64,000 bases of DNA from an uncultured Gammaproteobacteria bacterium (lineage in GTDB: Bacteria > Pseudomonadota > Gammaproteobacteria > SZUA-140). Under the pieces are notes generated by a model. That model made no database searches and was not told the DNA's origin. It saw nothing but the letters and a program-made list of their open reading frames with translations. The stretch is taken from NCBI GenBank assembly GCA_947258425.1, contig CAMYIG010000001.1, positions 866 to 64,865 of the forward strand, in the 5' to 3' direction. Shown here piece by piece: positions 34,904 to 62,535 of this stretch. Each line of letters begins with the position of its first letter. Within the stretch, counting starts at the first letter, position 1. The translations under genes and the position numbers were made by a program.

Positions 34904-36070
34904 TTAACTGGATACCGGAAATGGCCTTGGGATCACATAGTCACGGTAATCGCTCGGCTCACCTGTCTCGCCTGCCTCAGCGGCTTTAACGATGTTATAC
35001 GCCTCTCTTGCAGTCACATAATGCAGCGCATAGTCAGTGCCATCGTTATATCTATTTTCTAAATGCTGACACATTCGCTCCAGTGCCCCGCCAAATAAAA
35101 AGTCCGCATTAAGTTCTGTTGCGCCGTGCGTATGAACCTTAACGAAGACCCACTCTGGTCGCCCCTTGACATGAATATCCTGTTCCACCCATTGATCTAT
35201 TCTTCTCTCAAAAGGCAGCTCGGTCGGAGTGACATCGCCATTTTCTACCTTCGGCCAGATACCCAGTTTTCGATGTTTCCAGTCGAGTGTTAATGGCCCC
35301 TGAAATATCATCAGGTCACCACATTCAGGCTTGCCAACCTCAACCCGAACGCCGATATCATGTGATTTCGGCTTATCAGGATCATCCGTCGCATAATAGA
35401 TCTCATTCATTGCCTGAGTCTGAGTGTCACTGGGTGCTGAGGGCAGCGTGTAGTCCACATAGCAACCTAACTCTTTTAGGATCGTTATTTCGTTATTCAG
35501 CCCGCACCATTTTCCGTCTGCTCGCGCATTATCCAGCGCCCAGTTTCCATGGATAAATGCGAATCTGGGCTTTCCATCCACCATAGGCACTAAGCCATGT
35601 CGTTCAGATAGCATGTCAAGAAAGCCGTTTATTTTATCTTTAAATTCCTGTTCCGTATCACCATCGTGGTGAATGTGAATATCCACTTCGCCATAGCCAT
35701 CACGGCATAGCTGTTCGATCAAATTCATATGACCAATGCGATACTCTTCCTCGGGACAGAAGAAAGAATGCGTGGGCGGCTTGCCATCGGCATCACTGAA
35801 CTTTGATGCGATCTTTGGATACTCCTCATACCATCGATCCACACGATTTTGCGCATGCGTTTCATCGACACCACCGGCCAGCGGCTCATAATGATCGACA
35901 AAACAGAACATCACATGCTTCTTGCCAGTGTAGGTAGACTTCTTCCGCTCAAACACACCTCTAACATAACTCACTATCCATATATCTATTTGGCGCTGTT
36001 GTAAACCGACATAAAACACCACTAGTGCAGCTAGCATCCCTAATAAAATAGTGATAAAGATCGTCATCAT
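34904..36070 (-). CDS. Membrane-anchored protein of unknown function, His-rich metal-hydrolase/deacetylase-like motifs; last gene of the EPS operon
   Basis: N-terminal TM. HVMFCFVDHYEP, VDIHIHHDGDTEQEF, FAFIHGNWALDN and FVKVHTHGATE suggest a metal-dependent hydrolase/deacetylase-like barrel, but I cannot assign a family. Confidence 0.3.
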   Translation of the reverse strand: MMTIFITILLGMLAALVVFYVGLQQRQIDIWIVSYVRGVFERKKSTYTGKKHVMFCFVDHYEPLAGGVDETHAQNRVDRWYEEYPKIASKFSDADGKPPTHSFFCPEEEYRIGHMNLIEQLCRDGYGEVDIHIHHDGDTEQEFKDKINGFLDMLSERHGLVPMVDGKPRFAFIHGNWALDNARADGKWCGLNNEITILKELGCYVDYTLPSAPSDTQTQAMNEIYYATDDPDKPKSHDIGVRVEVGKPECGDLMIFQGPLTLDWKHRKLGIWPKVENGDVTPTELPFERRIDQWVEQDIHVKGRPEWVFVKVHTHGATELNADFLFGGALERMCQHLENRYNDGTDYALHYVTAREAYNIVKAAEAGETGEPSDYRDYVIPRPFPVSS

Positions 36071-36073
36071 GGG

Positions 36074-37243
36074 TTATCGTCTCTCCGCCTGTTCAACAAG
36101 CTCAAGAAACTGTTCGCCAATTTTCTCCCATGTATATTTTTCCATCGTCACCTGATAGCCTTTCATTGCCTTCCCATGCGCCTCTTCTTTATGCTCAACG
36201 ACGTGCTCAATCACATCAATCAATTCCTTTGCGGTATCTGCATAATAAAGGAAGTCTTCGTCAATATGTTTTAATTCATGTAGCCGCGTACTGATCACCG
36301 GTTTTTTTTGACTAAGGTATTCAAATAACTTGATCGGACAGGCTCGGTGTGAGACTGGGATCGGTGTGAAAATATTCAGGCAGACATCCATCTTATGAAT
36401 ATACTTAAAGACATCAATATGCGGTACACCCCCCGTTAGCTCCACATTCATTAACCCGCGAGTTTCGACCTTCTGCTTCACCGTCTGCCAGTCCCGGCCC
36501 GTCCCTACCAGTAAAAAATGGATATTCGGTAGCGCCTTCGCAGCCTCCAGAATAACGTCAAAATCGATAAAGTATTCAAAGGCGCCAATAAACCCGACGA
36601 CAGGTACCCCTTCCGCTGCGTTAATAGCGACAGGCTTATCGCCACCTGACTCATCAACAATCGATTTTCTAGCGCCCACACCATTAGGCAGCACATGCAC
36701 ATTTCCACTCGCGAGCGTTGCCAGTTCATGCGAGACAGATAGCGTTAACGAAGCGTTTTTCATCATTTTATCGAGCATCTTACCCGCCAGACCCAGCGCC
36801 AGTGGATTGCTAAACTTACCCAGTTCAACGCCCAGCATATCGACATAATCGTCGGCAAAATCGAAGACCTGAACAACATTTCCGCGCAGTGAGCTGAACT
36901 GAAATTGCGGAATGTTATAGAGCAAAACTACATCGATTTTATTTGTCTTCAGATATTGTTTTGCATAACGGTAGGCGCAATAAGAAAAAATTGCTTTTTT
37001 TGCCAGTTTCTCGAAAGGTAGCTTTAGCTTCCAGAGCTTTTGGTTAATCGGCACATCGCGTACTATGACATTAGCCTGATCAACCACCTCTATTTCCTGG
37101 TAATTAGTCTCAGCCGACTCTAATGAAGGCGGTTGTAACACATGGACCTCATGCCCCATCTCGGCCAGTGCAGAGAGCAGTGAATGGTATCGGGTCCAGT
37201 TAACCGCATGCCAGCGGGCCATGTACGGAAATAATATTTTCAC
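36074..37243 (-). CDS. Glycosyltransferase, GT-B fold (GT4-like)
   Basis: VVGFIGAFEYFIDFDVILEAAK...FLLVGTGRD...IKLFEYLSQKKPVIST (EX7E-like region). Confidence 0.75.
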   Translation of the reverse strand: MKILFPYMARWHAVNWTRYHSLLSALAEMGHEVHVLQPPSLESAETNYQEIEVVDQANVIVRDVPINQKLWKLKLPFEKLAKKAIFSYCAYRYAKQYLKTNKIDVVLLYNIPQFQFSSLRGNVVQVFDFADDYVDMLGVELGKFSNPLALGLAGKMLDKMMKNASLTLSVSHELATLASGNVHVLPNGVGARKSIVDESGGDKPVAINAAEGVPVVGFIGAFEYFIDFDVILEAAKALPNIHFLLVGTGRDWQTVKQKVETRGLMNVELTGGVPHIDVFKYIHKMDVCLNIFTPIPVSHRACPIKLFEYLSQKKPVISTRLHELKHIDEDFLYYADTAKELIDVIEHVVEHKEEAHGKAMKGYQVTMEKYTWEKIGEQFLELVEQAERR

Positions 37244-37244
37244 C

Positions 37245-38381
37245 TTATACTCCCAGACGTGCTGCTAATACATCGATTATTTTTGTCGCCGCATTCCCAT
37301 CACCATAGGGATTTTCATTAGCGACCATCTGTTCATAATACTGTTTATCATTCAGCAGGCGCGTAATTTCATCAATAATTTTATGCTGATCTGTGCCTAC
37401 AAGCTTAGCAGTCCCAGCCTCAATGCCCTCGGGTCGTTCTGTAGTTTCACGAAGGACAAGAATCGGTTTCTTCAATGAAGGCCCCTCTTCCTGAACGCCA
37501 CCAGAGTCGGTCACAAGGATTTCAGCCTTACTCATTAAATGAGAAAAGTTTACATAATCCATCGGTTCAATCAGGTAAATATTATCCTGAGACGAAAGCA
37601 TACCCTCAGCCTGTTTTCTCACATTAGGATTAGGATGAACGGGGAAGATGATGGAAACATCCGGAAATTTCTCGGCGATCTCAATAATAGCGCTAAACGT
37701 TCTCATCATGGGTTCACCAAAACTCTCTCTTCGGTGGCTTGTCAGTAGAATAAAACGACCATTGATCGCTTCACATACCGTATCAGACAGAATACTGCTG
37801 AAGTCCGGTTGCCGATTCTGCAACACCCACTGGATCGCATCAATGGATGTATTTCCTGTGACAATCACATCATCTGCAGGCACGTTCTCCGCCAGTAAAT
37901 TTTGAGCTGATTGGTCTGTCGGGGCAAAGTGAAGATTCGCAATAGCACCGCTCAATTTGCGGTTCACCTCTTCCGGAAATGGAGAATATTTCTGATGTGT
38001 TCTAAGCCCTGCCTCGACATGGGCTACGGGAATACGCCGATAAAAAGCCGCCAGCGCACCGATAAATGTAGAGGTTGTATCACCCTGCACGATCACATAA
38101 TCTGGTTCATACGAATCTAGCACGGGCTTGATACCACTTAATGCGTCAATTGTGACATCAAACAAGTCCTGATTATCACGCATAATATTCAAATCATAAT
38201 CTGGAGTCATAGAGAATATCTTCAGCGACTGATCCAGCATATCGCGATGCTGCGCTGTAACCAGTACCTTCACTTCAAACGTATCTGCGCGCCTCTTTAG
38301 CTCATGAAAGATCGGGGCTAATTTGATAACCTCCGGGCGTGTCCCAAATATCAACAGTATTTTTTTCAGCGCCATTACCAT
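37245..38381 (-). CDS. wecB: UDP-N-acetylglucosamine 2-epimerase (non-hydrolysing)
   Basis: KKILLIFGTRPEVIKLAPI, VLVTAQHRDMLDQ, VIVQGDTTSTF, VAHVEAGLRT, LVTDSGGVQEE and NPYGDGNAA. Confidence 0.92.
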   Translation of the reverse strand: MVMALKKILLIFGTRPEVIKLAPIFHELKRRADTFEVKVLVTAQHRDMLDQSLKIFSMTPDYDLNIMRDNQDLFDVTIDALSGIKPVLDSYEPDYVIVQGDTTSTFIGALAAFYRRIPVAHVEAGLRTHQKYSPFPEEVNRKLSGAIANLHFAPTDQSAQNLLAENVPADDVIVTGNTSIDAIQWVLQNRQPDFSSILSDTVCEAINGRFILLTSHRRESFGEPMMRTFSAIIEIAEKFPDVSIIFPVHPNPNVRKQAEGMLSSQDNIYLIEPMDYVNFSHLMSKAEILVTDSGGVQEEGPSLKKPILVLRETTERPEGIEAGTAKLVGTDQHKIIDEITRLLNDKQYYEQMVANENPYGDGNAATKIIDVLAARLGV

Positions 38382-39331
38382 TAATCCTCAATATGCATGC
38401 CACGCTCGATGTATTCTTGATACGTCACGACCTCAAGCTCATCATCCACTAACAGATCCAGCATCTCTTCAAAACCAGGAATCTTTTTAATATCCATCGG
38501 GTCCATATAAATATTGATGTACGAACCGGTCTGTTTTCCCATCTCGATCAGATCTTTAAAAAGCCCCAGATAATCCTCTGGCCCGCGATGGATTAATCGA
38601 TGAGATAATCTTTGTGCATTTAATGAATGCCAGGTATCGAAAACGGTAAATGGATGTTTGGGACAGGTGCTGAGTGGAATTTCAATAATCCCGTCACTCG
38701 CCATATATGGCAGCCCTGATGTGGTTGTATTTGTCAGCCAGGTCGATGAAGAGTAGGTATAATTCAGCTCTTTAAGAATTGAATAGATCTCGTCAGTAAA
38801 CAGGTTTTTAAAGTGCGGAATGCGTAGTCCAGTCGGCTCAACACCTAACACTCGCTGACATATCTCATGACACCGCGCGACCTCTTCCACCTTTTCATCA
38901 CGCGAGATATCTTTAAACTTTCGTCCTGGATTTAATAACTCGTTATCAGGGTGGGAATAGGTGTGGTTCATCAACTCATGCCCACCCAATAATACCGATT
39001 CATGCTCTTTGGGGTAGTCTTCTATCCAATGTCCCACTGCTGCAAAGGTTGCCTTAAAAGGATAAGGCTCCATCATCTTGACGATATCGGGTAACGCCTC
39101 AACATCCTCTGGATAATCACAATCAAAAGATAATGTGAAACAAGCCTTCTTCCCGTTCCACAATGACCTGCCTTTATTAACATTATAAATGGATCTGACA
39201 AACGCCTTAGGAAAGGTAAATGTAATCAGTCCAATCAGTGGAAGATTGTGATTTTGTGTTGAAATCCATCGATAAAGTCCACTTGGAATTTTCACAGTAG
39301 CGCCCCTGTATTTATTGCTTATCAAGCGCAA
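38381..39331 (-). CDS. Polysaccharide deacetylase (CE4/NodB-like, divergent)
   Basis: CFTLSFDCDYPED (variant of TFDDG), GHELMNHTYSHP (H-S/T-x-x-H motif) and RIPHF. Confidence 0.65.
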   Translation of the reverse strand: MRLISNKYRGATVKIPSGLYRWISTQNHNLPLIGLITFTFPKAFVRSIYNVNKGRSLWNGKKACFTLSFDCDYPEDVEALPDIVKMMEPYPFKATFAAVGHWIEDYPKEHESVLLGGHELMNHTYSHPDNELLNPGRKFKDISRDEKVEEVARCHEICQRVLGVEPTGLRIPHFKNLFTDEIYSILKELNYTYSSSTWLTNTTTSGLPYMASDGIIEIPLSTCPKHPFTVFDTWHSLNAQRLSHRLIHRGPEDYLGLFKDLIEMGKQTGSYINIYMDPMDIKKIPGFEEMLDLLVDDELEVVTYQEYIERGMHIED

Positions 39332-40493
39332 AGTTCAACGAAACCTTTGCATTATTAAACCAGTTATGGGTTTCAACCACATGTTGTCTTGCAGCAACAC
39401 CCATCTGATGAGTTAGTTCATCACTCGACAGGAGTTTACTTAAACATTTCTCCAGTGAAGCGACATCTTTTTTATTGAAAATCAGCCCTTGTTTGCCATC
39501 TTCAATGGCATCCAGTAGTGGCCCGTAATCCGGCCCAACCACAGGCTTGCACATGGACATGTATTCAAAAATCTTCATCGGTGAGCCATAGTCATTTGAA
39601 TCCGGCATCACGCCAATCGTGAACGCAGACATATAGTGGGGAAGTTCAGCATGGTTCACCTTGCCAGCAAAAATGACATTCGCTAACAAACCTAATCGCT
39701 CCACCTGCACCTCAATTTTCTCACGTTCAGGACCATCGCCAATCAGCAACAACATAGTCTCTGGATTATTTTCCACAACCTTAGCAAAGGCGTTAACGAG
39801 TAAATCCAGACCATGCCAGGGATAAAATCCGCCGACAAAACCAACCACTTTTTTCCCGGCTAAAGAGGTACCCTTTACCTCCGCAATAGCGGGAATATCT
39901 GGAGAGAATTTATCCGGATAGGCCGCATTTGGTACCACCAGAATTTTCTCCTCGCTCATTCCGTAATCATTTATCAGGTGCGCTTTTAAATGGCTAGAGA
40001 CAGCAATTAAGGTCGTCGCCTGACAAAATATTAGCTTATCGACCCATTTCGCCAGCGGCATTAGTAATGCACTCCTTTTACGTACTAAAGCAGTTTTCGC
40101 GGTATAATTCACCTCGATAATCAACGGTACTTTCCATATCCGGGAATAGAGCGCCCCCGCTACCGCGAATATAGCGTAACGCTCATAAATTGCGCCATAA
40201 CTTTTGCCTCTCGACGCGCTTCTCACATTAGCGATCGCAATAGCATTGTAGGCAATCTCAGCCAACTCAAAAACAGCAGAAGGTGAGTACTGGCTAATTA
40301 CTTTAAACAATCGGCTTTTAAACGATGGTCGCTGTTCACTTGCGACTGCTGGCTGATCAGATTGCCTGTCACCACCCACCGGAGAGACAACATTAACTTC
40401 ATGCCCAAGTGCCGTCAGGCCATCGATAATGCCCCAGATATGCACACCTTCGACACCGCCCCCCTGGGTTCTATGCAGATAAAGTATATTCAT
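39312..40493 (-). CDS. Glycosyltransferase family 4
   Basis: MNILYLHRTQGGGVEGVHI...VVGFVGGFYPWHGLDLLV...LLLIGDGPE...SPMKIFEYMSMCKPVVG. Confidence 0.8.
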   Translation of the reverse strand: MNILYLHRTQGGGVEGVHIWGIIDGLTALGHEVNVVSPVGGDRQSDQPAVASEQRPSFKSRLFKVISQYSPSAVFELAEIAYNAIAIANVRSASRGKSYGAIYERYAIFAVAGALYSRIWKVPLIIEVNYTAKTALVRKRSALLMPLAKWVDKLIFCQATTLIAVSSHLKAHLINDYGMSEEKILVVPNAAYPDKFSPDIPAIAEVKGTSLAGKKVVGFVGGFYPWHGLDLLVNAFAKVVENNPETMLLLIGDGPEREKIEVQVERLGLLANVIFAGKVNHAELPHYMSAFTIGVMPDSNDYGSPMKIFEYMSMCKPVVGPDYGPLLDAIEDGKQGLIFNKKDVASLEKCLSKLLSSDELTHQMGVAARQHVVETHNWFNNAKVSLNFALDKQ

Positions 40494-40535
40494 AAAATTT
40501 CAGACTTAATGCACCATCGCTCACTGTTCATCCCT

Positions 40536-41177
40536 TCACCCTTTCAATAATTCCGAGACTGTCACTGACTGCAGCCCACTCGCCGCGAGCTGATCTAATA
40601 ATGATTTGAGTGCCAATGGGGTATATGGTGTCTTATCGTGCAAAAGAGCAATATCACCAGCGATTAGTGGATGTTGCTCAAAAAAATCCGTAATCTCATC
40701 AGCAGAGGTTACTTTATAGTCCTCTGGATCCACATTCCATAATATGGCTTTCTGCCTTTTAGCTAAAATATACCGAAGTAATCCCAATGTAATCACCCCT
40801 TTAGGCGGCCGAAAAAGTGACCGGCTCTCAGGCGCCTGGTCGTCAGACCTAAGTAGCTCCCACACATCATCAAGTTCATCGCTTATCGCATGGTAGCCCA
40901 ATAAGCTGAACTCGGGGTGCGTCATAGAATGGTTACCTAATTCATGGCCTCGTGCTTCAATCATTTTCGTTATTTCAGGATATTTCTTAACCTGCTCTCC
41001 CACTACGAAAAATGTTGCCTTCATACCCGCCTCATCCAGCACATCCAGCACCTGTTCTGTATAGGGGTGGAATGGACCGTCATCAAAGGTCAGCGCGACC
41101 TTTTCAGCACCTGTTGTTGAACGGCAAACAAGAAAATGAGACAAGATAACTTCTTTTACCCATTTCTTAAGGTTCAT
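40536..41177 (-). CDS. Polysaccharide deacetylase (CE4/NodB)
   Basis: VALTFDDGPFHPYTEQVLDVLDEAGMKATFFVVG, GHELGNHSMTHP, RPPKG and LLHD. ATG at 41177 (MNLKKW...) preferred over the longer ORF start at 41249, which would lie deep inside the upstream gene. Confidence 0.85.
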   Translation of the reverse strand: MNLKKWVKEVILSHFLVCRSTTGAEKVALTFDDGPFHPYTEQVLDVLDEAGMKATFFVVGEQVKKYPEITKMIEARGHELGNHSMTHPEFSLLGYHAISDELDDVWELLRSDDQAPESRSLFRPPKGVITLGLLRYILAKRQKAILWNVDPEDYKVTSADEITDFFEQHPLIAGDIALLHDKTPYTPLALKSLLDQLAASGLQSVTVSELLKG

Positions 41178-42387: not shown

Positions 42388-42390
42388 ACA

Positions 42391-43533
42391 TCAAGCACCG
42401 GAACGATAAGCTTTTTCATAAAGCGAACTATAACGAGTAATCATAGCACTTTTACTAAAATGACTTTCGACGACGGCCCGACCCTCATTTCCCATCGCCT
42501 CTCTTTTTTTCTCATCTTCCACTAATTCAAGCACTTTCAGAGACATCGTATCAGCATCGCCAACCGGCGTAAGTAGCCCACTAACATGATTCTTTACCAA
42601 CTGAGGATTTCCACCCACATCTGTGGCTATTACTGGTAATGCACTACTCATTGCTTCGAGAATACTTAGGCTCATCCCTTCGCTTATTGAGGAGACCATA
42701 TAGATATCCATCGCGCAATAATAGGGGCTCACATCTTCCTGCTCACCTGCAAAAATAACATTATTTTCTACCTTGGCACTCCTTACAAACTGCTCCAGTT
42801 CTTCACGCAGAATGCCATCTCCTACAATGATGAGCTTTATATCACTTCTGAGGTTTGTAATTAATGCTAACGCGGCAATCATTGTCTTATGATCTTTGAC
42901 TGGCACCAGCCGACCAATCGTACCTAATACAATGTCACTGTTATTAATTCCCAGACTTTCACGAACTTGACCGCCAACAACCGCATCCTTTGCAAATCGT
43001 TTAGTATCTACGCCATTCGGTACTACCTGAATATTGTTACTGTCGATACCAGAATCTTCAATCATCACTTTTCTGACCTGATCTGATACAGTCACCACGC
43101 TATCTGTAAAGTAGGTCAAACATCTCTCCAATATAAAGCGATGTTTCTTTTTTGCTGTTTCATTGGAGTGCGCCGTATACACTACCCGTGTACCACGACA
43201 AAGTAGAGCGGCAACTACAGAATACAGCCACGCGGAATAGTTATTGCTATGAACAACGTGAATTTTCTGTTCTTTTATAAATCGAATTAATTTGAAAAAT
43301 AAAAAAAGATCTATCCCTTCTTTTTTATCAAACACATGCACAGGCACTTTTGCCCTCTGTAGGTCTTGCTCTAAAACACCACCACCCTCGAATACCGCAA
43401 CCTGCACTGAATATTTATCATTTTCAAGGCCCGAAACCATTTCAACGATCATCCGCTCGATACCACCCATGCCCATTGAGTGATTAACAAACAGCAAATT
43501 AATTTTCTGTGAGGAAACCACCGATTTGCTCAT
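42391..43533 (-). CDS. Glycosyltransferase family 4
   Basis: INLLFVNHSMGMGGIERM, LGTIGRLVPVKDH, IIVGDGILRE, VSSISEGMSLSILEAMSSALPVIATDVGGNPQ. Confidence 0.85.
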   Translation of the reverse strand: MSKSVVSSQKINLLFVNHSMGMGGIERMIVEMVSGLENDKYSVQVAVFEGGGVLEQDLQRAKVPVHVFDKKEGIDLFLFFKLIRFIKEQKIHVVHSNNYSAWLYSVVAALLCRGTRVVYTAHSNETAKKKHRFILERCLTYFTDSVVTVSDQVRKVMIEDSGIDSNNIQVVPNGVDTKRFAKDAVVGGQVRESLGINNSDIVLGTIGRLVPVKDHKTMIAALALITNLRSDIKLIIVGDGILREELEQFVRSAKVENNVIFAGEQEDVSPYYCAMDIYMVSSISEGMSLSILEAMSSALPVIATDVGGNPQLVKNHVSGLLTPVGDADTMSLKVLELVEDEKKREAMGNEGRAVVESHFSKSAMITRYSSLYEKAYRSGA

Positions 43534-44792
43534 ATAATTTCCTTAACCGCTGCCAACCAAATCATAAATATCAAGCCAAACATGCCCGATATAATTATCA
43601 ATAAATCCTTTTTTGATAATGAAACCACTGGAACTTGATCCGATTCTTTACGTGCAACCAGATATGCAGCCGCAGACAAACCCAGCACAAAATAGAGCAG
43701 GTCAAGTTCCATTACGACAAAAAACGTAGTGGCCAGGTAACCTATTAGCGCCGCTGTTAGCATTCCATTTGCAGCCACTATTCGCCCATCAAGTCCCTCT
43801 ACCTGCTTGCTTACATAGTAATTACCTTTAAAGCTAAACCACAAAATTGCAGTAAAACAGAAAAACCCAAGCAATCCTAACTCTGCAAAATTCTGCACAT
43901 AATTATTATGAGCGATCAGCTTCAATTCAGAGGCCGCAGCAAACTGCCCTCGTCCAATACCTAATAATGGGTTATCGACCAACATTTCGAGCCCTTGCTC
44001 CCATAGCCATACCCGCTCACCGGCAGATGACTCCGAAGAACTCACTTCGCTCATTCTAGAAGGTCCGACAAGTACGATCGCAGAAATGACAGCAACACCT
44101 AACAGTACCGCCTTCCAGAGCTTAAAATAACTTTTAAAATAAAAAATAAGTGCGCAAATCACGGCAAGTACTGCGCCTCTTGAATTTGTGAAATATATCG
44201 CGTACATAAACAGCCCAAAAAGTCCCATACCAAACAACTTTACACCCAGCGAATTAGTCTTTCTTGCGAATAGATCGATAGACATTGCTGCCGAGATAAC
44301 AAATAGCAGCCCATACACATTTGGGCCGTCCCAATCGCCATACCAACGCACTCGTATTTCGGTATAGCCAGGATAAGAAGTAAGTCCACCCCAGCTTTCA
44401 CCGGTAAGCGCTTGCAAAATCGCCTGATACGCAAGGAATATCGACATCAAAAATACCATGTAAACAACTGATATTAATTTTTCTTTGGTATTTACTAGCC
44501 ATACGACCATAATAAAAACTAATACGCGTTTAAGAAAAATAATAAACTGCTCTATCGCGGTCCCTGCATCCACAGAAATAAATGTAGACAGAAAAATAAC
44601 CACTAAATAGAAAACAAGTAATTTAATTTGTGGGATCTGGAATTCTGAAGGGTTTTGTGAATAATTCATAAACCCAATCACTAACCCCAGTGGGATCAGA
44701 ATATCATTCGTGGGCATCCCCATGAGTGACGGCACCCAATCCTGAGGCCTCACATATAGCGAGACCAGATATAAAAATATAATTATGCGCAC
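43530..44792 (-). CDS. O-antigen ligase/polymerase-like (Wzy_C) integral membrane protein; candidate exosortase A-associated O-glycosylation ligase
   Basis: About 10-12 predicted TM segments. FTNSRGAVLAVI loop and a large periplasmic loop with ERVWLWEQGLEML..NPLLGIGRGQF are typical of the Wzy_C/O-antigen ligase family. Confidence 0.7.
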   Translation of the reverse strand: MRIIIFLYLVSLYVRPQDWVPSLMGMPTNDILIPLGLVIGFMNYSQNPSEFQIPQIKLLVFYLVVIFLSTFISVDAGTAIEQFIIFLKRVLVFIMVVWLVNTKEKLISVVYMVFLMSIFLAYQAILQALTGESWGGLTSYPGYTEIRVRWYGDWDGPNVYGLLFVISAAMSIDLFARKTNSLGVKLFGMGLFGLFMYAIYFTNSRGAVLAVICALIFYFKSYFKLWKAVLLGVAVISAIVLVGPSRMSEVSSSESSAGERVWLWEQGLEMLVDNPLLGIGRGQFAAASELKLIAHNNYVQNFAELGLLGFFCFTAILWFSFKGNYYVSKQVEGLDGRIVAANGMLTAALIGYLATTFFVVMELDLLYFVLGLSAAAYLVARKESDQVPVVSLSKKDLLIIISGMFGLIFMIWLAAVKEII

Positions 44793-44829
44793 TGAATAGT
44801 ACCCCGCGCATCCATTCCAACCATCACCA

Positions 44830-46293
44830 TCACAAAAACTTTTCCTTCAATGATGAGGCTCGAACAGCTAACTCTTTAAACATCCCCCTTACCTTGCTAT
44901 CAATCAGGTACAACACCAGCACAAATCCGAGAATCAGACCCGTTTTCACAACAATACCCCAAATTATTTCTGCCGGAACAAGAAACAGGCTAAGCACATA
45001 GAAAGTTATTGCGACTAACGTGACAATGAGCGACCTTACATGCAGGTATGACACAGGGTAAATTTTCTGCGACACGTAGAACGTAAGAAAAGAGAAAATG
45101 ACACCAGAAATAATAAACATGGTTGCCGCGCCGTACACTCCCATCAACTGGATGAGGATAAAATTTCCGGCCACATCAATCACGAAAACAACCATACTGA
45201 TATACAATATATATTTGGTCTTTTTCTGATATAAAAGACCGGTTTGATAGCAATATGACATTTCTCGAGCGGCCACACCCACTAACAAAAGTGGGACAAC
45301 TGAACTTGCAGTCCAAAACGCCTCGCTCGAAGCTATCACTAAAACATCTGATGCAAATAAAGATATGCCTAGCGCAACAAAAGAAACCGCTACGACAAAA
45401 TAATGGGTGACGACTATCTGAATATCCTTAGCATCATCCTGATTCATTATTGAAAATCTAAATGGACCGTAGACCCTCTGAAATGGTTCTACCAGCATAA
45501 ATCTCAATAACAGACCAAACTTCATTGCAAGCCCGTAAACACCAACGGCTTCTAATGATGCATAGGTACGCAACATCACTTGCCCAACATTAATCATCAG
45601 CACCATCACAATAGCGCTACCCGCAAATGGTACGCTGTACTTTATGACTGGAATGGCCTTGGCAAGATCAAAACTGAAGCCACAGTGTCTAATCACGTAG
45701 AAAATTAATATTGTACCAACCAGCCCAGCACATATTAAATTAGCTTTTAATACACCAACAATTCCTTCTTCCCAATAGGCCACAAACAACACACTAAAGA
45801 CCAACTGTGTTATCAACTTTGCAATGGATAATAAAACATAAAAAATAGAGAGTTCTTTTGCTCTGAGGTATGCATAACCGATTTCTGAACTTAACTCGAT
45901 CACTATAATAACTAAAACAAGCTGTAATGCTTTCTCATACCCACTATCACCGAGCAAAAGCACTGTCATTTCTGGCACCCAGCTAGCCAGCAATAGAACC
46001 CCAGCAATGGACAACCCTAATGATGTAAATAGATTTGTGGTAATAACAGCATTACGATCTTTTTTACTTTCGTAATCAAAATAGAATCTTAATGTTGCAT
46101 GTGATAACCCAGCGCCAAGCAGTACCGATAGCGTTGCACTACTCGCGTAGAGTAGCTCTAGTGCGCCATACTCTGATAGTGAAAGATAATGCGTATATAA
46201 AGGAAGTAAGACGAAAGCCCCAAGCCTGTTAATTGCATTGCCAATCCAGTATATCGCACCGTGATGAAGCAGACGCTGTATGTCCTTCTTCAT
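44830..46293 (-). CDS. Polysaccharide flippase (Wzx/MOP superfamily)
   Basis: 487 aa, highly hydrophobic with about 12-14 TM segments. N-terminus LLHHGAIYWIGNAINRLGAFVLLPLYTHYLSLSEYG is typical of Wzx/polysaccharide biosynthesis proteins. Confidence 0.75.
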   Translation of the reverse strand: MKKDIQRLLHHGAIYWIGNAINRLGAFVLLPLYTHYLSLSEYGALELLYASSATLSVLLGAGLSHATLRFYFDYESKKDRNAVITTNLFTSLGLSIAGVLLLASWVPEMTVLLLGDSGYEKALQLVLVIIVIELSSEIGYAYLRAKELSIFYVLLSIAKLITQLVFSVLFVAYWEEGIVGVLKANLICAGLVGTILIFYVIRHCGFSFDLAKAIPVIKYSVPFAGSAIVMVLMINVGQVMLRTYASLEAVGVYGLAMKFGLLLRFMLVEPFQRVYGPFRFSIMNQDDAKDIQIVVTHYFVVAVSFVALGISLFASDVLVIASSEAFWTASSVVPLLLVGVAAREMSYCYQTGLLYQKKTKYILYISMVVFVIDVAGNFILIQLMGVYGAATMFIISGVIFSFLTFYVSQKIYPVSYLHVRSLIVTLVAITFYVLSLFLVPAEIIWGIVVKTGLILGFVLVLYLIDSKVRGMFKELAVRASSLKEKFL

Positions 46294-46294
46294 A

Positions 46295-48130
46295 TCAGTA
46301 CGGTTTATTATTAGAATTGTTATTTTCTTGGATATCTATTGCTTCGATCATTCGAATAAGTACTTCTTTAATGTTCTCGCGCGCAAAATCAGGATGGGAC
46401 TTTAATCCTGATGAAACTCTATCGCGTAGATGAGTTAACCAAAACAAACACTTAAGCGGAAATAAAAGTTCTGTGGGCAGCGCATACTTAGCGCATGCCA
46501 TTTCAATAAGATCTTTATAAAAAACGTCTGTTTTTCCAGGAAGCAGAATATTTTTATATACATCAGCCAACGACTGCCCTGTTTCAGATGAAATCCTGTA
46601 CAGAATCAGCGTATAGATATCCAGTAGTGGCATGCCATTCTTTTCAGACATATCCCAGTCGATAATTCCGCCAAGCTGGCCATCATCTAAAAAGAGAATA
46701 TTACCTAGCTTATAATCACCGTGAGACCTGACAAATGGAATATTTTTATCCTTAAAGGCCCCAAACAAAAACTCACCTATTATAGACAGCAGGGGCTTCA
46801 CATCATCATCACATAAGGCTGCCAATGGTGATATTGCGCCAACAATAAATTGATTAATTAATATTTCATCGAACGCTCTATTTTTTACTCCATTCATTTG
46901 CATATCAATAAAAAGCTCGCAAGATTGCATTATCATCAACTCTGCTTTCTCACCAAAGCCGTCTAACTCCTTCCCTCGTATTTTCTCTTCAATGATATAA
47001 CCCTTAGACTCTTGAACTTTATCTACGTAAAGTCTTGGAACAAAGCCTGAAAATATTTCATTTGATAATGCCTTAAGTGCATCAGCATTTCGCTGTACTG
47101 CCATTAAACCTTCAGACGTCCTTGGATGGCGCACGACAATATCTCGATCATTTTCATCCTCAGGGCCGACTATCAGAATGGTAACGCCAGAGTTCCCAGC
47201 AACAATTTTCTTTACAACTACGCGGCCTACCCCCCAATTAAGCATTACACCTATCCGCTCAGACTCAATAACTTCATCAATGACTCGCTTATGAGATACC
47301 CGAGAAGCAATCAGCATAAAGGATGGCCAAAGATTTGATGGTAAAAAGCGATGTTTTATATACTGCTTAATTTTATAGAATGCGCTCATGCAGTACACAC
47401 TCAAATCGCCTAAACTACCATTTTTCACAAACACGGGAAGCGGCATAAAACTAGATGTGTAATAAAAATCGCCAATATACTTATCTATAATACTATATTG
47501 CTGGCAGGATAAAATCCGCTTTAAACGCTTAACGGGGACTCCATTCAATTCTTTATCACGTGAAACCCCATGCAAATTGTGCAACCAATCTCGATAGTTT
47601 TGAGCATTATTATCGATAATAACGAGTGAACCATTCAGAGATAACAAAGCCTTACTGTTAGCTACAAATATGCGGTAGCGGTCACATACGCTCATCTCAC
47701 TTTGAAATGAACGGCTATTACTTACATGCAACAATATAACAAGTGAAACAGCTTCAGCGGCTATAGGTAGTGGCTTAGACAAATCAGCCTGCACTGGAAT
47801 CACATTATCCACTGATTTTTTCAGTGCCTCACGCTTTACCTTCATCAACGCATTCACATCACTATGAATGGCAATTACAGTTAAAAAATGCGGTGCAAGT
47901 TTACATGAGATATTTCCATCCGTATCATCGATCACTAACGCAACACTCTGGTTCTTCACATAATGTGGTAACAGCGGCAACCAGAAGGCGTGATCCGCGT
48001 TCGACTTCCCTAATAAATCTTTATACTGCGAAAAGCTCTCCGATTGATCCAGCATTGAACGTAGTGAATCCTGACAATCAGTTATGTCACCACTAGAATC
48101 GCAATAATTTTCTGGATAACTCTCTTTCAC
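46295..48130 (-). CDS. Two-domain protein: degenerate Rossmann/methyltransferase-like N-half plus protein-kinase-like phosphotransferase (APH/ChoK-like) C-half
   Basis: C-half: FVRSHGDYKLGNILFLDDGQLGGIIDWDMS (HGDxxxxN...IDWD catalytic/Mg loop of APH/choline-kinase-like enzymes). N-half: SVALVIDDTDGNIS...VIAIHSD...VSLVILLHV resembles a class I MTase fold but lacks the GxGxG motif. Confidence 0.55.
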   Translation of the reverse strand: MKESYPENYCDSSGDITDCQDSLRSMLDQSESFSQYKDLLGKSNADHAFWLPLLPHYVKNQSVALVIDDTDGNISCKLAPHFLTVIAIHSDVNALMKVKREALKKSVDNVIPVQADLSKPLPIAAEAVSLVILLHVSNSRSFQSEMSVCDRYRIFVANSKALLSLNGSLVIIDNNAQNYRDWLHNLHGVSRDKELNGVPVKRLKRILSCQQYSIIDKYIGDFYYTSSFMPLPVFVKNGSLGDLSVYCMSAFYKIKQYIKHRFLPSNLWPSFMLIASRVSHKRVIDEVIESERIGVMLNWGVGRVVVKKIVAGNSGVTILIVGPEDENDRDIVVRHPRTSEGLMAVQRNADALKALSNEIFSGFVPRLYVDKVQESKGYIIEEKIRGKELDGFGEKAELMIMQSCELFIDMQMNGVKNRAFDEILINQFIVGAISPLAALCDDDVKPLLSIIGEFLFGAFKDKNIPFVRSHGDYKLGNILFLDDGQLGGIIDWDMSEKNGMPLLDIYTLILYRISSETGQSLADVYKNILLPGKTDVFYKDLIEMACAKYALPTELLFPLKCLFWLTHLRDRVSSGLKSHPDFARENIKEVLIRMIEAIDIQENNNSNNKPY

Positions 48131-48176
48131 ACCCTATCCTATAAACAATTATTTACCAGAAAGCATTAGCTTTAAA

Positions 48177-49205
48177 TTACATAAAAATTGATGGCAAGGA
48201 GAGCATCGCGGCAAACTCTTCCCTTGACTGATATCTTTCTACATGAAGCCGCTTGAGTGCATATTTTTCATAACATACGAACGAGTTAGTACCATTTACA
48301 TAACTAGTAGAAAACTCATACCCACACTGCTCTGCCATCTTCAACGCTCTTTTATCAAAAGCATTTTTGCCGCCCACAGGATATGCAAGTACCTGGCAAG
48401 GTTTGGCTAGCTGATCTTCAAGTACATTTTTTGAGTGTTCTATCTCGTAATATAATTCATCATCATCTAAATTAGAAAAAATTGGATGCGTGACTGAATG
48501 AGAGCCAAATTCGATATTACTTGCGGACATCTCTTTTACTTGCTCCCAGGTTAATGGAGCACTCTGGGAAAACTTTTCTTTGTTTTTTACAAACCCCGTT
48601 TGATGCTCAAGAATTTCTATAGTAGTAATCCTGGAGCTATTAGGTATTTCTTTCAGGCGTTGTAACAAAGTTTTCAGTAGTAATTTACGTTGATTACGGT
48701 CACTGTTTAGCTCAAGCACTAAATCTGCACTGTGAAGATCAATCATCATATTATCCGCGCAAAGAATCATATACGCGACCCAATCAAACCAGAATGGTTT
48801 AGTGCCACCGATATAATCCGTTGAGATAAAAATGGTTGCCGGCACATTACATTTTTTTAATATAGGAAACGCCACTGTATAGTTATCATCAAAGCCGTCG
48901 TCAAACGTAACAATGAGTGGCCGCGGCGGCATCTGCATCCTTCCTGCGGTTATTTCCACGAGATCGAAAAAAGTTATAGGATTGTAGTGTTTTTTAACAA
49001 AAGTCATTTGCCATTCGAAATCATCACTGGATGCACTAATCAGATCTAAATCAAACTTGTATTCTGTATCATCAGCAAGGTCTACTATTCTATGGTAGGC
49101 TAAAATCATTAACTCGCTTACATATCTCGATCGCAGTCCTGCAATAACTGGCAAAAGCCCTAAAGCGCTTAATGCCCGCCCTGCGAATGCTTTTTTACTA
49201 CCCAC
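48177..49205 (-). CDS. Polysaccharide deacetylase (CE4), candidate PEP-CTERM-locus subfamily
   Basis: LIVTFDDGFDDNYTVAFPILKKCNVPATIFI, FGSHSVTHP and AYPVGG. Positioned directly after the OM barrel gene, as in XrtA loci. Confidence 0.85.
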   Translation of the reverse strand: MGSKKAFAGRALSALGLLPVIAGLRSRYVSELMILAYHRIVDLADDTEYKFDLDLISASSDDFEWQMTFVKKHYNPITFFDLVEITAGRMQMPPRPLIVTFDDGFDDNYTVAFPILKKCNVPATIFISTDYIGGTKPFWFDWVAYMILCADNMMIDLHSADLVLELNSDRNQRKLLLKTLLQRLKEIPNSSRITTIEILEHQTGFVKNKEKFSQSAPLTWEQVKEMSASNIEFGSHSVTHPIFSNLDDDELYYEIEHSKNVLEDQLAKPCQVLAYPVGGKNAFDKRALKMAEQCGYEFSTSYVNGTNSFVCYEKYALKRLHVERYQSREEFAAMLSLPSIFM

Positions 49206-50842: not shown

Positions 50843-50845
50843 TTC

Positions 50846-53292: not shown

Positions 53293-53341
53293 CTTAACTT
53301 GCCTTTAGTATTAATATTAATGTACAGCCGTAAAATAGGCA

Positions 53342-54351: not shown

Positions 54352-54367
54352 TGGCACGGTTAGTGCT
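54352..54367 (+). promoter_or_regulatory. Sigma-54 (-24/-12) promoter for the PEP-CTERM protein gene
   Basis: TGGCAC-ggtta-GTGCTT against the consensus TGGCAC-N5-TTGCW. GG/GC spacing is correct, and the element sits about 40 nt upstream of the ATG at 54407. A sigma-54 activator (prsR) is encoded nearby. Confidence 0.6.
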
Positions 54368-54970: not shown

Positions 54971-54997
54971 CAACAAAAAGGTGCCTAAGCACCATTG

Positions 54998-55033
54998 GCC
55001 CTCAGATAGCGAACCTATCTGAGGGCTTTTTTT
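54998..55033 (+). terminator. Rho-independent terminator after the PEP-CTERM gene
   Basis: gccctcagatag-cgaac-ctatctgagggc followed by ttttttt: perfect 12 bp stem with a 5 nt loop. Confidence 0.9.
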
Positions 55034-55042
55034 ATTCTCCAT

Positions 55043-57322: not shown

Positions 57323-57339
57323 CCTATTCCCCTTGAATA

Positions 57340-58929: not shown

Positions 58930-58938
58930 AAAAACTGC

Positions 58939-60312: not shown

Positions 60313-60315
60313 CTT

Positions 60316-62400: not shown

Positions 62401-62535
62401 TCAATTATCATCGGCGATGAGAAAACCCTAAAATGGCAAAATATTATAAATTATGAACATCAAAATATAGCGCACTTACACGCAGTCCGTGACATTCCAG
62501 ACAGGACTCGCCTCATCAGTGAAACCAGTTAACGA

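Follow-up and report, generated by a model that had tools for sequence, protein, structure and literature searches.

Why does one exopolysaccharide operon of an uncultured gammaproteobacterium encode several deacetylase-like proteins, and on what would these act? The sequence examined (the window) is a stretch of 64,000 nucleotides of contig CAMYIG010000001.1.

Organization of the locus

The minus strand from 53983 to 34904, throughout which intergenic gaps do not exceed 89 bp, is a single Wzx/Wzy-dependent exopolysaccharide operon within a complete XrtA/PEP-CTERM (exosortase A) locus:

54407..63927: XrtA/PEP-CTERM core, namely PEP-CTERM protein (+) and PrsT, XrtA-EpsI fusion, PrsR, PrsK and TIGR03013 priming transferase (all -)
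49295..53983 (-): XrtA-type export genes, namely Wza-like TIGR03027, chain-length TIGR03007, Tyr kinase TIGR03018 and outer-membrane protein TIGR03016, all above NCBIfam cut-offs
48177..49205 (-): CE4a, putative PgaB/IcaB-like CE4 deacetylase, its motifs in permuted order and with ~100 aa inserted between MT1 and MT2
46295..48130 (-): APH-type kinase-like protein of 611 aa, with a C-terminal APH/choline-kinase-type domain (HGDYKLGN, IDWD)
44830..46293 (-): Wzx-type flippase (PF01943 62.9 bits, PF13440 33.4 bits)
43530..44792 (-): Wzy/O-antigen-ligase-like polymerase (PF04932 64.8 bits; TIGR03097 54 bits, below the cut-off of 188)
42391..43533 (-): GT4a (PF00534 134 bits, PF13439 107 bits; TIGR03088 264.5 bits, below the cut-off of 409)
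41167..42387 (-): GT4b, TuaC-like (PF00534 120.7 bits; NF047684 191 bits, below cut-off)
40536..41177 (-): CE4b, putative minimal canonical NodB-domain deacetylase without signal peptide
39312..40493 (-): GT4c (PF00534 105 bits; PF13579 and PF13439 above cut-off)
38381..39295 (-): CE4c, putative D-x-D variant CE4 deacetylase (FDCD / HTYSH / RIPH), linked to wecB
37245..38381 (-): wecB, non-hydrolysing UDP-GlcNAc 2-epimerase (TIGR00236 492.3 bits, cut-off 210; PF02350 391 bits)
36074..37243 (-): GT4d, glycosyltransferase with a divergent N-terminal domain (PF13524 54.6, PF13692 51.3 and PF00534 34.8 bits, all above cut-off)
34904..36070 (-): X (unk388), membrane protein with a single TM helix and a predicted cytoplasmic (beta/alpha)7 deacetylase/GH57-like barrel

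The export genes form the upstream part of the transcription unit carrying the deacetylase genes. Within the core, TIGR02917 (595 bits), TIGR03109 (233.9), TIGR02915 (683.6), TIGR02916 (763.7) and TIGR03013 (577.3) all exceed their cut-offs, and the PEP-CTERM protein matches PF07589 (31.8 bits); a sigma-54-like site is found upstream of its gene.

Between 34904 and 49205, Pfam and NCBIfam profiles identify three PF01522/CE4 genes among 13 consecutive genes, together with wecB, four GT4 genes, Wzx and a Wzy-like gene. The wecB, GT4, Wzx and Wzy assignments of the first-pass annotation are thereby confirmed through TIGR00236, GT-B/GT4-clan Pfam families, PF01943 and PF04932. Each of GT4a-d passes GT-B/GT4-clan Pfam cut-offs, GT4d on its C-terminal domain only (PF13439 25.5 bits, below the cut-off of 28.5); its homologue in the related locus L082 also matches Glyco_transf_4. 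That annotation had passed over the 611-aa kinase-like gene in the same interval. Its product matches PF01636 (43.3 bits) at residues 463-527, with no assignment for the N-terminal half, found no match in a PDB sequence search and gave an AF2 model too poor to use (pLDDT 32); its position is kept in loci L081-L085 at 25-29% identity.

The CE4 proteins

Three CE4 genes had been proposed from their motifs, and all three hold up: they score 82.2 (CE4a), 99.6 (CE4b, ORF 40536-41249) and 65.3 bits (CE4c, with a weak PF03065 match) against PF01522, the gathering cut-off of which is 23.1 bits, and the catalytic residues are kept in ~25-56 homologues each.

The CE4a domain (motifs IVTFDDG / HSVTHP) is matched in pieces across residues 92-298. 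Y37-H38-R39, D102-D103, H240, P276 and G278 do not vary among 54 sequences, of which 53 have H236. It resembles the PNAG de-N-acetylases PgaB, IcaB and BpsB in its N-terminal region (PgaB/BpsB 5bu6), in the permuted order, TFDDG coming after the Y-H-R strand that holds the catalytic His, and in its metal-binding Asp/His. It differs from them in falling below the family cut-offs, in its insertion of ~100 aa, and in serving a system that depends on Wzy and not on a synthase.

CE4b (LTFDDG / NHSMTHP) is called as 213 aa on the near-identical public contig L081, which supports the start at 41177 given previously. Across 56 homologues, residues D56, D57, H107, H111, R147, P149, D174, L202 and H204 do not vary, and 55 retain D177. 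Among solved structures 7y51, SpPgdA and Bc1960 come nearest, the closest relative being described as an acetylxylan esterase; the HfsH model gives only 20 bits (cut-off 400).

For CE4c (SFDCD / NHTYSHP) we prefer a start at 39295 rather than 39331, the same near-identical contig calling 304 aa. D58, D60, H111, H115, R158, P160 and H161 are invariant in 25 sequences, and its PDB matches include HpPgdA 3qbu and 3rxz.

Protein X

The first-pass annotation also pointed to a fourth, His-rich hydrolase-like membrane protein at 34904-36070, a description borne out by its one N-terminal TM helix, its many invariant His/Asp residues and a predicted deacetylase-like fold. The X family comprises 1869 clusters at 50% identity and has no matching model in Pfam-A or NCBIfam. 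Some 90 residues are invariant among homologues at 51-61% identity. The Asp/His among them cluster where predicted barrel strands end C-terminally: strand 1 carries D58/H59, strand 3 H131/H133/H134/D137, strand 4 H173 and strand 7 H312/H314. The motifs are D-H-[YF]-E-P, H-x-H-H-D-x-D, HGNWxLDN and HTHG.

Structural modelling indicates that X has a deacetylase-type fold, with deacetylases and deformylases (HpPgdA, 3rxz, insect chitin deacetylases, PuuE, ArnD and Agd3) predominating among its best matches, and we infer that it would be catalytically active as a deacetylase. It is nonetheless only 8-16% identical to HpPgdA (3qbu), M. smegmatis 3rxz, PuuE and ArnD, lacks profile-level similarity to them, and has a TM anchor and motifs of its own. 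The GH57/GH38 glycosidases share this fold, and X could instead be a GH57/GH38-like member of the barrel superfamily, whether a glycoside hydrolase or some other hydrolase, that might for instance trim or proof-read a lipid-linked oligosaccharide; the operon would then have only three deacetylases. In favor of such an enzyme, no relation of X to CE4 is detected by sequence (hhalign probability 0.6%, no Pfam match), and X offers no evident equivalent of the second His in the CE4 motif H-x-x-x-H. We nevertheless consider it unlikely, given the structural matches, invariant residues that are His-rich as in metal hydrolases (H59, H131, H133, H134, H173, H314) with no GH57 Glu/Asp pair, and fusion partners that are CE4 and acyltransferase domains, not glycosidases.

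CE4 pseudoenzymes exist, BA3943 being an example, and one (7bkf) is among the fold matches of X. X is found fused to or beside CE4a-type domains (nine such fusions among the best 150 cluster representatives) and possesses a membrane anchor that the CE4 proteins lack, as might be expected of a non-catalytic partner (pseudoenzyme, scaffold or anchor) for membrane recruitment of CE4a and the GT4 enzymes. The ~90 invariant residues with their clustered His/Asp, and motifs that persist in distant fusion proteins, make this improbable. Moreover, the X domain is retained in fusions without a TM helix; its role is therefore not merely anchoring.

Conservation in other genomes

A cassette with the order CE4a-Wzy-GT4-CE4b-GT4-X, X standing at its end, recurs in hundreds of genomes, at least mainly of Gamma- and Betaproteobacteria; Pseudoxanthomonas, Dyella and Luteibacter are among the cultured carriers. 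The arrangement CE4a-Wzy-...-GT4a-(GT4b)-CE4b-(GT4c)-X occurs in most of 80 genome loci, a Wzy-like homologue in 60 of the 80, and gene order is common to independent contigs at 25-80% protein identity. L082 and L084 also have the 13 genes in full order; L085 has most of this order, its contig ending at CE4c. Around X homologues with full flanks, at least one CE4 gene was found in 44 of 48 loci and at least two in 34 of 48. The density of deacetylases, which had been called unusual, thus exceeds chance, as the recurring gene order shows, yet it is not unique to this genome or unusual for this type of locus. The conserved core of the widespread cassette is CE4a, CE4b and X.

Beside this core, CE4c-wecB-GT4d is an accessory module. 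wecB directly adjoins CE4c in 10 of ~14 orthologous loci with flanks; two of these show 34-38% identity and are without the rest of the cassette. The order wecB-GT4d-X is seen in L001, L007, L081, L082, L084, L089 and L090; in L002 GT4d-X is present and the contig ends before wecB. As judged by its profile matches, wecB provides an N-acetyl-hexosamine donor, UDP-ManNAc.

Site of action

The first-pass annotation envisaged removal of acetyl groups from the polymer. This appears not to be the case: the charge bias and fusions of X suggest that the substrates are probably lipid-linked units in the cytoplasm. X is placed on the cytoplasmic side because K/R residues are concentrated after its TM helix (2.35 in the following 15 residues versus 0.06 before), because in some organisms X is joined to a GT2 or a hexapeptide acyltransferase with no TM helix between, and because in three fusions a secreted-type beta-helix lies across the TM helix from it. 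Since a clear signal peptide is absent from all four proteins, the deacetylases probably act at the cytoplasmic face on lipid-linked units and not on finished polymer.

PgaB, IcaB and PplD, the closest characterised relatives of CE4a, work outside the cytoplasm. Some or all of the deacetylases might likewise act after export, as do PgaB, IcaB and PelA, tuning the charge and adhesion of the EPS. CE4a is most similar to the PgaB/BpsB/IcaB types and adjoins the export genes, and in the window its N-terminus is weakly signal-peptide-like (KK...ALSALGLLPVIAGL), a basic stretch followed by 14 hydrophobic residues. However, CE4a lacks both a clear signal peptide and a lipoprotein box, the N-terminus of its L083 homologue is charged and amphipathic and not a signal peptide, and CE4a reaches 98 bits with the PgaB model, whose cut-off is 322. 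Neither CE4b nor CE4c has a signal peptide, and CE4a-type domains are fused straight to X, itself fused elsewhere to cytoplasmic GT2 and hexapeptide transferase domains. Action after export is accordingly quite unlikely in our estimation.

Some CE4 enzymes are O-acetyl esterases. In the present case N- rather than O-deacetylation is suggested because the operon supplies N-acetyl sugars and profile annotation of its genes revealed no O-acetyltransferase.

Neighbouring genes

Three further features lie near the operon:

33019..34614 (+): secreted right-handed beta-helix protein with a clear Sec signal peptide, convergent with X
29255..30481 (+): Fem-like GNAT (PF13480 Acetyltransf_6, 74.3 bits)
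13930-27815: NRPS

Homologues of the beta-helix protein adjoin X in L001, L002, L007, L081, L082 and L083 (those of L082 and L083 being Pel9A-like by Pfam), and beta-helix-TM-X fusion proteins occur. The FemAB-like gene and NRPS reported nearby are both real. The GNAT, encoded 4.4 kb away from the operon, has no NCBIfam match and hence is not TIGR03019; it is 33% identical to its counterpart in the syntenic L084, where a PF13480 gene and then an NRPS/PKS directly follow X. Of 84 related loci, only 13 have a PF13480 gene no more than 10 kb away, and re-acylation is therefore not general to such loci.

Comparison with known systems

As in XrtA/PEP-CTERM exopolysaccharide loci (Haft 2006, PMC1569441), including the floc-formation loci of Zoogloea and Aquincola (PMC9850573), the window has XrtA, PrsK, PrsR, PrsT, a PEP-CTERM protein, TIGR03013, TIGR03007, TIGR03018, TIGR03027 and TIGR03016, all above curated cut-offs, and GT4 and CE4 genes are typical neighbours. 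It differs in that TIGR03006, the canonical XrtA deacetylase, is matched by none of its CE4 proteins, and TIGR03019 and the stp1-3 glycosyltransferases are likewise unmatched at cut-offs; present instead are three other CE4 types, X and the APH-like kinase gene, and a full NRPS replaces the small acyl-CoA ligase/ACP set.

In the Wbp/Vim system of Porphyromonas and Tannerella the CE4 enzyme VimE de-N-acetylates an amino sugar, the Fem-like VimA adds an amino acid to the amine, and proteins are attached at this site by a sortase-like enzyme, a logic its authors proposed for exosortase loci as well (PMC7468200). The gene-level likeness of the window lies in its CE4 genes, PF13480 GNAT, 2-epimerase beside CE4c, and XrtA. 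Profile annotation of the operon did not find the Wbp dehydrogenase, aminotransferase and N-acetyltransferase for 2,3-diamino uronic acid, and the window has four candidate deacetylases rather than one and a GNAT that is outside the operon.

In the Caulobacter holdfast, the cytosolic CE4 HfsH is thought to deacetylate lipid-linked precursors and the Fem-like GNAT HfsK is proposed to acylate the freed amines (PMC5362036). Like the polymer predicted for the window, this adhesive polysaccharide is Wzx/Wzy-dependent and contains HexNAc; unlike the window, the holdfast system has one deacetylase, no exosortase and no X-family protein. The suggestion of the first-pass annotation that freed amines might accept acyl groups has published precedents in VimE/VimA and HfsH/HfsK.

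Proposed pathway

On balance we favor, with some reserve, a multi-deacetylase Wzx/Wzy repeat-unit pathway in which four enzymes act before flipping. The TIGR03013 phosphoglycosyl transferase would prime undecaprenyl phosphate, and the four GT4 enzymes would build a repeat unit of up to ~five sugars, GT4d being the probable transferase for the UDP-ManNAc made by wecB. At the cytoplasmic face, CE4a, CE4b, CE4c and membrane-tethered X would each take an acyl group, most likely N-acetyl, off a given residue of the lipid-linked unit, and the CE4c module would add and de-N-acetylate a ManNAc-derived residue. Three or four deacetylations per ~five-sugar unit are many, and some of the enzymes could use other substrates. 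The unit would then be flipped by Wzx, polymerised by the Wzy-like protein and exported by the XrtA-type Wzc/Wza/outer-membrane set. Exposed amines would render the polymer cationic, and in the window locus the nearby Fem-like GNAT may re-acylate them.

Operon and exosortase setting

The open reading frames running from 53983 down to 34904 all lie on the minus strand and either overlap or are separated by no more than 89 bp, which is consistent with a single transcription unit. Gene order, read 5′ to 3′ along the minus strand, was assigned using Pfam and NCBIfam.

Genes of the exopolysaccharide operon and the PEP-CTERM gene upstream of it (window positions, strand, product, and match)
54407–54970 (+): PEP-CTERM protein gene, upstream of the operon; above the curated cut-off
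53342–53983 (−): Wza-like exporter; TIGR03027, 238 bits
51718–53292 (−): chain-length determinant; TIGR03007, 522 bits
50846–51718 (−): tyrosine autokinase; TIGR03018, 243.5 bits
49295–50842 (−): outer-membrane protein; TIGR03016, 192.5 bits
48177–49205 (−): deacetylase CE4a; PF01522, 82.2 bits
46295–48130 (−): 611-aa APH-type kinase-like protein; PF01636, 43.3 bits
44830–46293 (−): Wzx; PF01943
43530–44792 (−): Wzy_C protein; PF04932
42391–43533 (−): glycosyltransferase GT4a; PF00534, PF13439
41167–42387 (−): glycosyltransferase GT4b; PF00534
40536–41177 (−): deacetylase CE4b; PF01522, 99.6 bits
39312–40493 (−): glycosyltransferase GT4c; PF00534
38381–39295 (−): deacetylase CE4c; PF01522, 65.3 bits
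37245–38381 (−): wecB, non-hydrolysing UDP-GlcNAc 2-epimerase; TIGR00236, 492.3 bits against a cut-off of 210
36074–37243 (−): glycosyltransferase GT4d; PF13524, PF13692, PF00534
34904–36070 (−): protein X, 388 aa; no Pfam or NCBIfam match

Also upstream of the operon are PrsT (TIGR02917, 595.2 bits), an XrtA–EpsI fusion, PrsR (TIGR02915, 683.6 bits), PrsK (TIGR02916, 763.7 bits), and the TIGR03013 priming transferase, all of which pass the curated cut-offs. Exosortase A (TIGR03109) scores 233.9 bits against a cut-off of 208 and the PEP-CTERM substrate (TIGR02595) 27 bits against 16, and every model of the XrtA-type polysaccharide set (TIGR03013, TIGR03007, TIGR03018, TIGR03027, and TIGR03016) is likewise passed. 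Since the upstream core genes all exceed their cut-offs, the locus is a complete exosortase A (XrtA/PEP-CTERM) system enclosing the deacetylase operon. This type of locus was described by Haft et al. (PMC1569441), and there is genetic evidence that such exosortase loci drive floc formation (PMC9850573). The exosortase itself (57340–58929, minus strand) is a 529-aa XrtA with a C-terminal EpsI domain (TIGR02914, 99 bits); on the XrtW model it reaches 228 bits, under the cut-off of 425.

The wecB gene, four GT4 genes, Wzx, and Wzy-like protein claimed in the first-pass annotation are all confirmed by these matches, as is the presence of a nonribosomal peptide synthetase (NRPS) near the operon, at 13930–27815. 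Its account of the interval left out the 611-aa kinase-like gene lying within it. A public MAG contig (GCA_947259125.1, CAMYKX010000085.1) shows 99–100% protein identity to the window, and in its gene calls CE4b is 213 aa and CE4c 304 aa long, which backs the shorter start of each.

The three CE4 deacetylases

The NodB/CE4 motifs previously read in three genes are present in CE4a, CE4b, and CE4c, and all three proteins score above the Pfam gathering cut-off for PF01522 (23.1 bits). In this family the Asp-Asp of motif 1 provides the catalytic base and a metal ligand, the histidines of motif 2 are metal ligands, and the histidine of motif 5 is the catalytic acid. Catalytic competence was judged by aligning each protein with its own homologues (54 sequences for CE4a, 56 for CE4b, and 25 for CE4c). 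The acidic pair of motif 1 and the H-x-x-x-H of motif 2 are kept in all three, being invariant or found in 53 of 54 homologues.

CE4b has the canonical form of all five NodB motifs (D56-D57; H107/H111; R147-P-P149; D174..D177-Y; L202-x-H204), invariant or nearly so across its alignment, and its closest solved relatives are the small NodB domains 7y51, SpPgdA, and Bc1960. CE4a is of the permuted PgaB/IcaB-like type: T-F-D102-D103-G and H236-x-x-x-H240, also invariant or nearly so, are preceded by an N-terminal strand (Y37-H38-R39) bearing the catalytic-acid histidine, motif 3 reads Y-P-x-G instead of R-x-P-Y, and the domain is interrupted by an insertion of about 100 residues. Its matches to the PgaB and IcaB equivalogs cover the N-terminal region only and fall short of both cut-offs (TIGR03938, 98.1 against 321.9 bits; TIGR03933, 50.7 against 248 bits). 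In CE4c, motif 1 takes the D-x-D form (F-D58-C-D60), a variant also seen in HpPgdA, and is followed by H111-T-Y-S-H115 and R158-I-P160-H161, all invariant in its alignment; its sequence matches in the PDB include HpPgdA (3qbu), 3rxz, and Bc1960.

None of them belongs to TIGR03006, the canonical XrtA deacetylase: against a cut-off of 276.2 bits, CE4c, CE4b, and CE4a score 40.2, 40.1, and 18.9; this model gave no match on protein X. Among related loci, the CE4a homologue of metagenome contig L082 (L082 1–122) is 547 aa long with a faint hexapeptide-transferase match, and may be an acyltransferase–deacetylase fusion. The related contig L083 carries a further deacetylase-superfamily gene (19513–20259) with PF10096 (DUF2334) and a weak GH57 match.

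Protein X, a candidate deacetylase

Protein X is the most interesting element of the operon: a large family lacking a Pfam or NCBIfam model, with a confidently modeled barrel of the deacetylase/GH57 type. More than 7000 homologues are found in a collection of 5.8 billion proteins. The best 120 show 52–63% identity, apart from one near-identical sequence; none carries a Pfam domain, and source names, where given, are "hypothetical protein." A HMMER search of 1.84 billion cluster representatives delimits the family as 1869 clusters at E ≤ 1e-3 and 540 at E ≤ 1e-30.

The first-pass annotation had offered X as a possible fourth deacetylase. Membership of CE4 is not supported by sequence comparison: hhalign of X against the CE4c family returned a probability of 0.6%, and the sole profile alignment, which sets H100 opposite the first motif 2 histidine, is not significant. 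Among 31 aligned members (the window protein and 30 homologues) scanned against Pfam at E ≤ 5, no family matched more than two members and PF01522 was not among the matches; phmmer and hmmsearch of X against PDB sequences found nothing at E ≤ 10.

The fold and the pattern of conservation do support X as a candidate deacetylase; it may also be a hydrolase of another kind or a partner with no catalytic role. The AlphaFold2 model from the 31-sequence alignment (pLDDT 90.6, pTM 0.92) comprises an N-terminal helix (residues 2–24) followed by a barrel of alternating strands and helices, predicted to be the (β/α)7 barrel of glycoside hydrolases and deacetylases. Foldseek with this model recovered a Bombyx chitin deacetylase (E 1e-6) and 3lm3 (E 5e-4). 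About 90 columns of the alignment are invariant, including D58-H59-x-E61-P, H131-x-H133-H134-D-x-D137, H173-G-N-W-x-L-D-N, and H312-T-H314-G at the ends of predicted strands 1, 3, 4, and 7, respectively. It is at such strand ends that barrel enzymes of the deacetylase and glycoside hydrolase superfamily carry their catalytic and metal-binding residues.

Domain fusions and probable site of action

The best 150 X-family representatives were surveyed for fusions by Pfam scans, and 18 of these are longer than about 550 aa. Eight, of about 700 aa, begin with a CE4 domain that an insertion interrupts and continue with X, here lacking its transmembrane helix; another has the reverse order, X and then CE4. 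The fused CE4 domain and window CE4a share 28% identity (E 1e-30) in a 275-residue alignment that takes in the insertion. Such CE4a-type fusions are evidence of the Rosetta-stone kind for X and CE4a acting jointly within one compartment. Three representatives (P0252, P0253, and P0256) have an N-terminal right-handed β-helix, a transmembrane helix, and X, and single examples join a hexapeptide acyltransferase to X with no transmembrane helix, X to a following GT2 domain, and a PMT_2 membrane domain to a following X.

Lys and Arg residues average 0.06 before the transmembrane helix of the X family and 2.35 in the 15 residues after it, a bias which by the positive-inside rule places the barrel in the cytoplasm. 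This agrees with the direct fusions of X, one to GT2 and one to a hexapeptide transferase of the acetyl-CoA type, and with the β-helix of the fusions, which stands on the opposite side of the transmembrane helix; the separate β-helix protein encoded beside X (33019–34614) has a clear Sec signal peptide. X is thus predicted to be a cytoplasmic, membrane-tethered protein. Neither CE4b nor CE4c has a signal peptide; the N-terminus of window CE4a is ambiguous, and that of its L083 homologue is charged and amphipathic. From the topology of X, the fusions, and the missing signal peptides of CE4b and CE4c, we surmise that the deacetylases would act on undecaprenyl-PP-linked repeat units at the cytoplasmic face, before flipping. 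The membrane-associated ArnD offers an analogy for such pre-flip action on undecaprenyl-linked units. Action on lipid-linked precursors has also been proposed for HfsH, the cytosolic CE4 deacetylase of the Caulobacter holdfast (PMC5362036). The operon contains no O-acetyltransferase gene and N-acetyl sugars are supplied, which favors de-N-acetylation over de-O-acetylation as the probable reaction.

A cassette conserved across genomes

At least 595 loci encode X homologues when one genome per GTDB species is scanned. The best 80 of these were sampled for synteny using tblastn with all window proteins; they belong mostly to the Lysobacterales (Pseudoxanthomonas, Dyella, Luteibacter, Rhodanobacter, and Luteimonas), with other Gammaproteobacteria (Colwellia, Thalassotalea, Agarivorans, and Cellvibrionaceae) and Burkholderiales. 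The recurrent order among these 80 is CE4a–Wzy–(Wzx and one more gene)–GT4a–(GT4b)–CE4b–(GT4c)–X, with homologues of CE4a in 54, CE4b in 54, Wzy in 60, and GT4a in 66. All 13 genes of the window's order, the kinase-like gene among them, recur at 25–80% identity on independent metagenome contigs: L082, and L084, which has an additional AsnB-like gene. A third contig, L085, shares the order up to its end at CE4c, and in L083 the order is rearranged. The gene inserted in L084 (6303–8165), between GT4b and CE4b, encodes an AsnB-type amidotransferase and has no counterpart in the window; it is reminiscent of the WbpS/TIGR03108 amidotransferases, which are associated with exosortase loci and with the linking sugar of the T9SS.

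Because the same order recurs across independent loci, the clustering of deacetylases is selected rather than accidental. Of the 48 loci whose 10-kb flanks are complete, 44 have one or more CE4-like genes, 34 two or more, and five have three. Several deacetylases together are therefore the norm for the cassette, not the unusual density first reported, and the idea that a set of four is unique to this genome is rejected by the synteny.

The common trio is CE4a, CE4b, and X, to which the window adds a CE4c–wecB–GT4d block. With CE4c as the query, wecB directly adjoins in 10 of about 14 loci with usable flanks, among them two distant loci (34–38% identity) that have no other cassette genes. This adjacency, even where the rest of the cassette is missing, supports by inference an accessory module which would supply, transfer, and deacetylate a ManNAc-derived residue. 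The region is, then, a variant XrtA exopolysaccharide operon, in which a widespread conserved cassette with three deacetylase-fold enzymes is joined by the accessory CE4c–wecB–GT4d. No description of the cassette or of an X-like protein was found in the literature searched on exosortase/PEP-CTERM systems, polysaccharide deacetylases, FemAB, and UDP-GlcNAc 2-epimerase.

Neighboring genes and regulatory sites

The gene convergent with X (33019–34614, plus strand) encodes a right-handed β-helix protein (Pel9A/NosD-like) with a clear Sec signal peptide, and its homologues adjoin X in six related loci (L001, L002, L007, L081, L082, and L083). This adjacency, and the three representatives in which the two are fused with a transmembrane helix between them, suggests that they function as a pair across the membrane, with the outer partner possibly a lyase or epimerase of the EPS and the inner one a hydrolase. 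Between the β-helix gene and the Fem-like GNAT gene lies 30822–32942 (plus strand), encoding 706 aa with four Big_9/cadherin-like repeats, likely a surface adhesin.

At its C-terminus the 611-aa protein carries a domain of the APH/choline-kinase type, in which the HGDxxxxN and IDWD motifs are intact; the N-terminal 300 or so residues alternate between strands and helices and match no family. Its position is kept in syntenic loci, and its sequence is fast-evolving (25–29% identity). A word-indexed homologue search returned two near-identical sequences only, comparison with the PDB gave no informative match, and an AlphaFold2 model from a shallow alignment reached a pLDDT of 32. Resemblance to the kinase-methyltransferase WbdD was considered and rejected, there being no match. 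Its role could be to modify the repeat unit with a phosphate or phospho-substituent.

The NRPS is organized as A-T-C-A-T (the second A domain carrying a luciferase-like monooxygenase insert), C-A-T-oxidase (nitroreductase family), and C-A-T. After it, within the region 10887–27815, come two α/β hydrolases, a 200-aa protein with no match, and an Sfp-type PPTase; no thioesterase domain is among the Pfam matches of this region. The hydrolases weakly resemble exosortase A system-associated hydrolases 2 and 1 (104 and 81 bits, below cut-off), and the whole group resembles an enlarged form of the acyl-CoA ligase/ACP/hydrolase set known from XrtA loci. In L084, a related NRPS/PKS, also with a luciferase-like domain, comes after the cassette and the GNAT gene that follows X.

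A scan of the window for sigma-54 promoters gave eight sites against 5.3 expected, an overall excess which is not significant. Two −24/−12 elements, each with one mismatch, are suggestive by position: TGGCAC-N5-GTGC at 54352–54366 (plus strand), some 40 bp upstream of the PEP-CTERM gene, and TGGCAC-N5-TTTC at 13812–13826 (minus strand), in the gap that separates the hydrolase genes from the last gene of the NRPS. Regulation of PEP-CTERM genes by sigma-54/PrsR has been reported, and the former site would fit such control. Scans for sigma-70 promoters and terminators at the operon ends stayed at chance level, except for a strong terminator 3′ of the PEP-CTERM gene.

Sugar amines as possible acceptors

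The first-pass annotation confirmed here as to its observation is partly supported in its wider interpretation, which saw the freed amines as able to accept acyl or peptidyl groups and held this relevant to the adjacent FemAB-like gene and the NRPS. That gene (29255–30481) does match PF13480 (Acetyltransf_6) with 74.3 bits. It matches no NCBIfam family at E ≤ 1e-3, and hence not TIGR03019, so that it is Fem-like at the Pfam level only; it lies 4.4 kb past the operon end with two secreted-protein genes (the Big_9/cadherin-like and β-helix proteins) between. In L084 a GNAT 33% identical to it stands directly after X, and PF13480 genes are found inside the cassette in L082 and L083, the latter with two. 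A PF13480 gene within 10 kb occurs in only 13 of 84 related loci, and a Fem-like GNAT as constant partner of the cassette is therefore rejected.

In the Wbp/Vim pathway, the CE4 enzyme VimE removes the N-acetyl group of an amino sugar, the Fem-like VimA attaches Ser or Gly, and the T9SS sortase joins cargo proteins to that amine; the authors of that work explicitly raised, as a speculation, the same role for the paired deacetylase and Fem-like protein found in exosortase loci (PMC7468200). Given this precedent and proposal, the amine-acceptor idea is plausible and not new. The window shares with that pathway a CE4 deacetylase and a PF13480 GNAT, but the Wbp enzymes (UDP-GlcNAc dehydrogenase, oxidase/aminotransferase, and N-acetyltransferase) are absent, and neither a sugar dehydrogenase nor an aminotransferase assignable to the pathway was found in the operon or elsewhere in the window; the only aminotransferase (4167–5414) adjoins an ornithine carbamoyltransferase gene.

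The most far-reaching proposal is that X would found a new carbohydrate-esterase/deacetylase family acting with CE4a on undecaprenyl-linked units at the cytoplasmic face, and that in XrtA loci of this kind the resulting amines, aminoacylated or peptidylated by the GNAT and the NRPS, would serve exosortase A as acceptor for PEP-CTERM proteins. It parallels Lipid II/FemABX/sortase and the T9SS Wbp/Vim linking sugar, and we regard it as improbable. If it were true, sugar amines would be the long-sought attachment point for PEP-CTERM proteins.

Significance

If the enzymes prove ordinary, the finding is a well-annotated variant EPS operon; if X is active, it would represent a new carbohydrate-esterase family working on lipid-linked intermediates. 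In environmental and wastewater bacteria, XrtA/PEP-CTERM systems drive the formation of flocs and biofilms, and here a widespread EPS cassette (at least 595 loci; 1869 protein clusters) carries a conserved deacetylase-fold trio, one member of which belongs to a family with no Pfam-A or NCBIfam model. That family is present in cultured strains of Pseudoxanthomonas, Dyella, Luteibacter, Rhodanobacter, and Thalassotalea, which offer tractable hosts in which to ask whether multiple de-N-acetylations make cationic or acylatable sites and whether these serve protein attachment.
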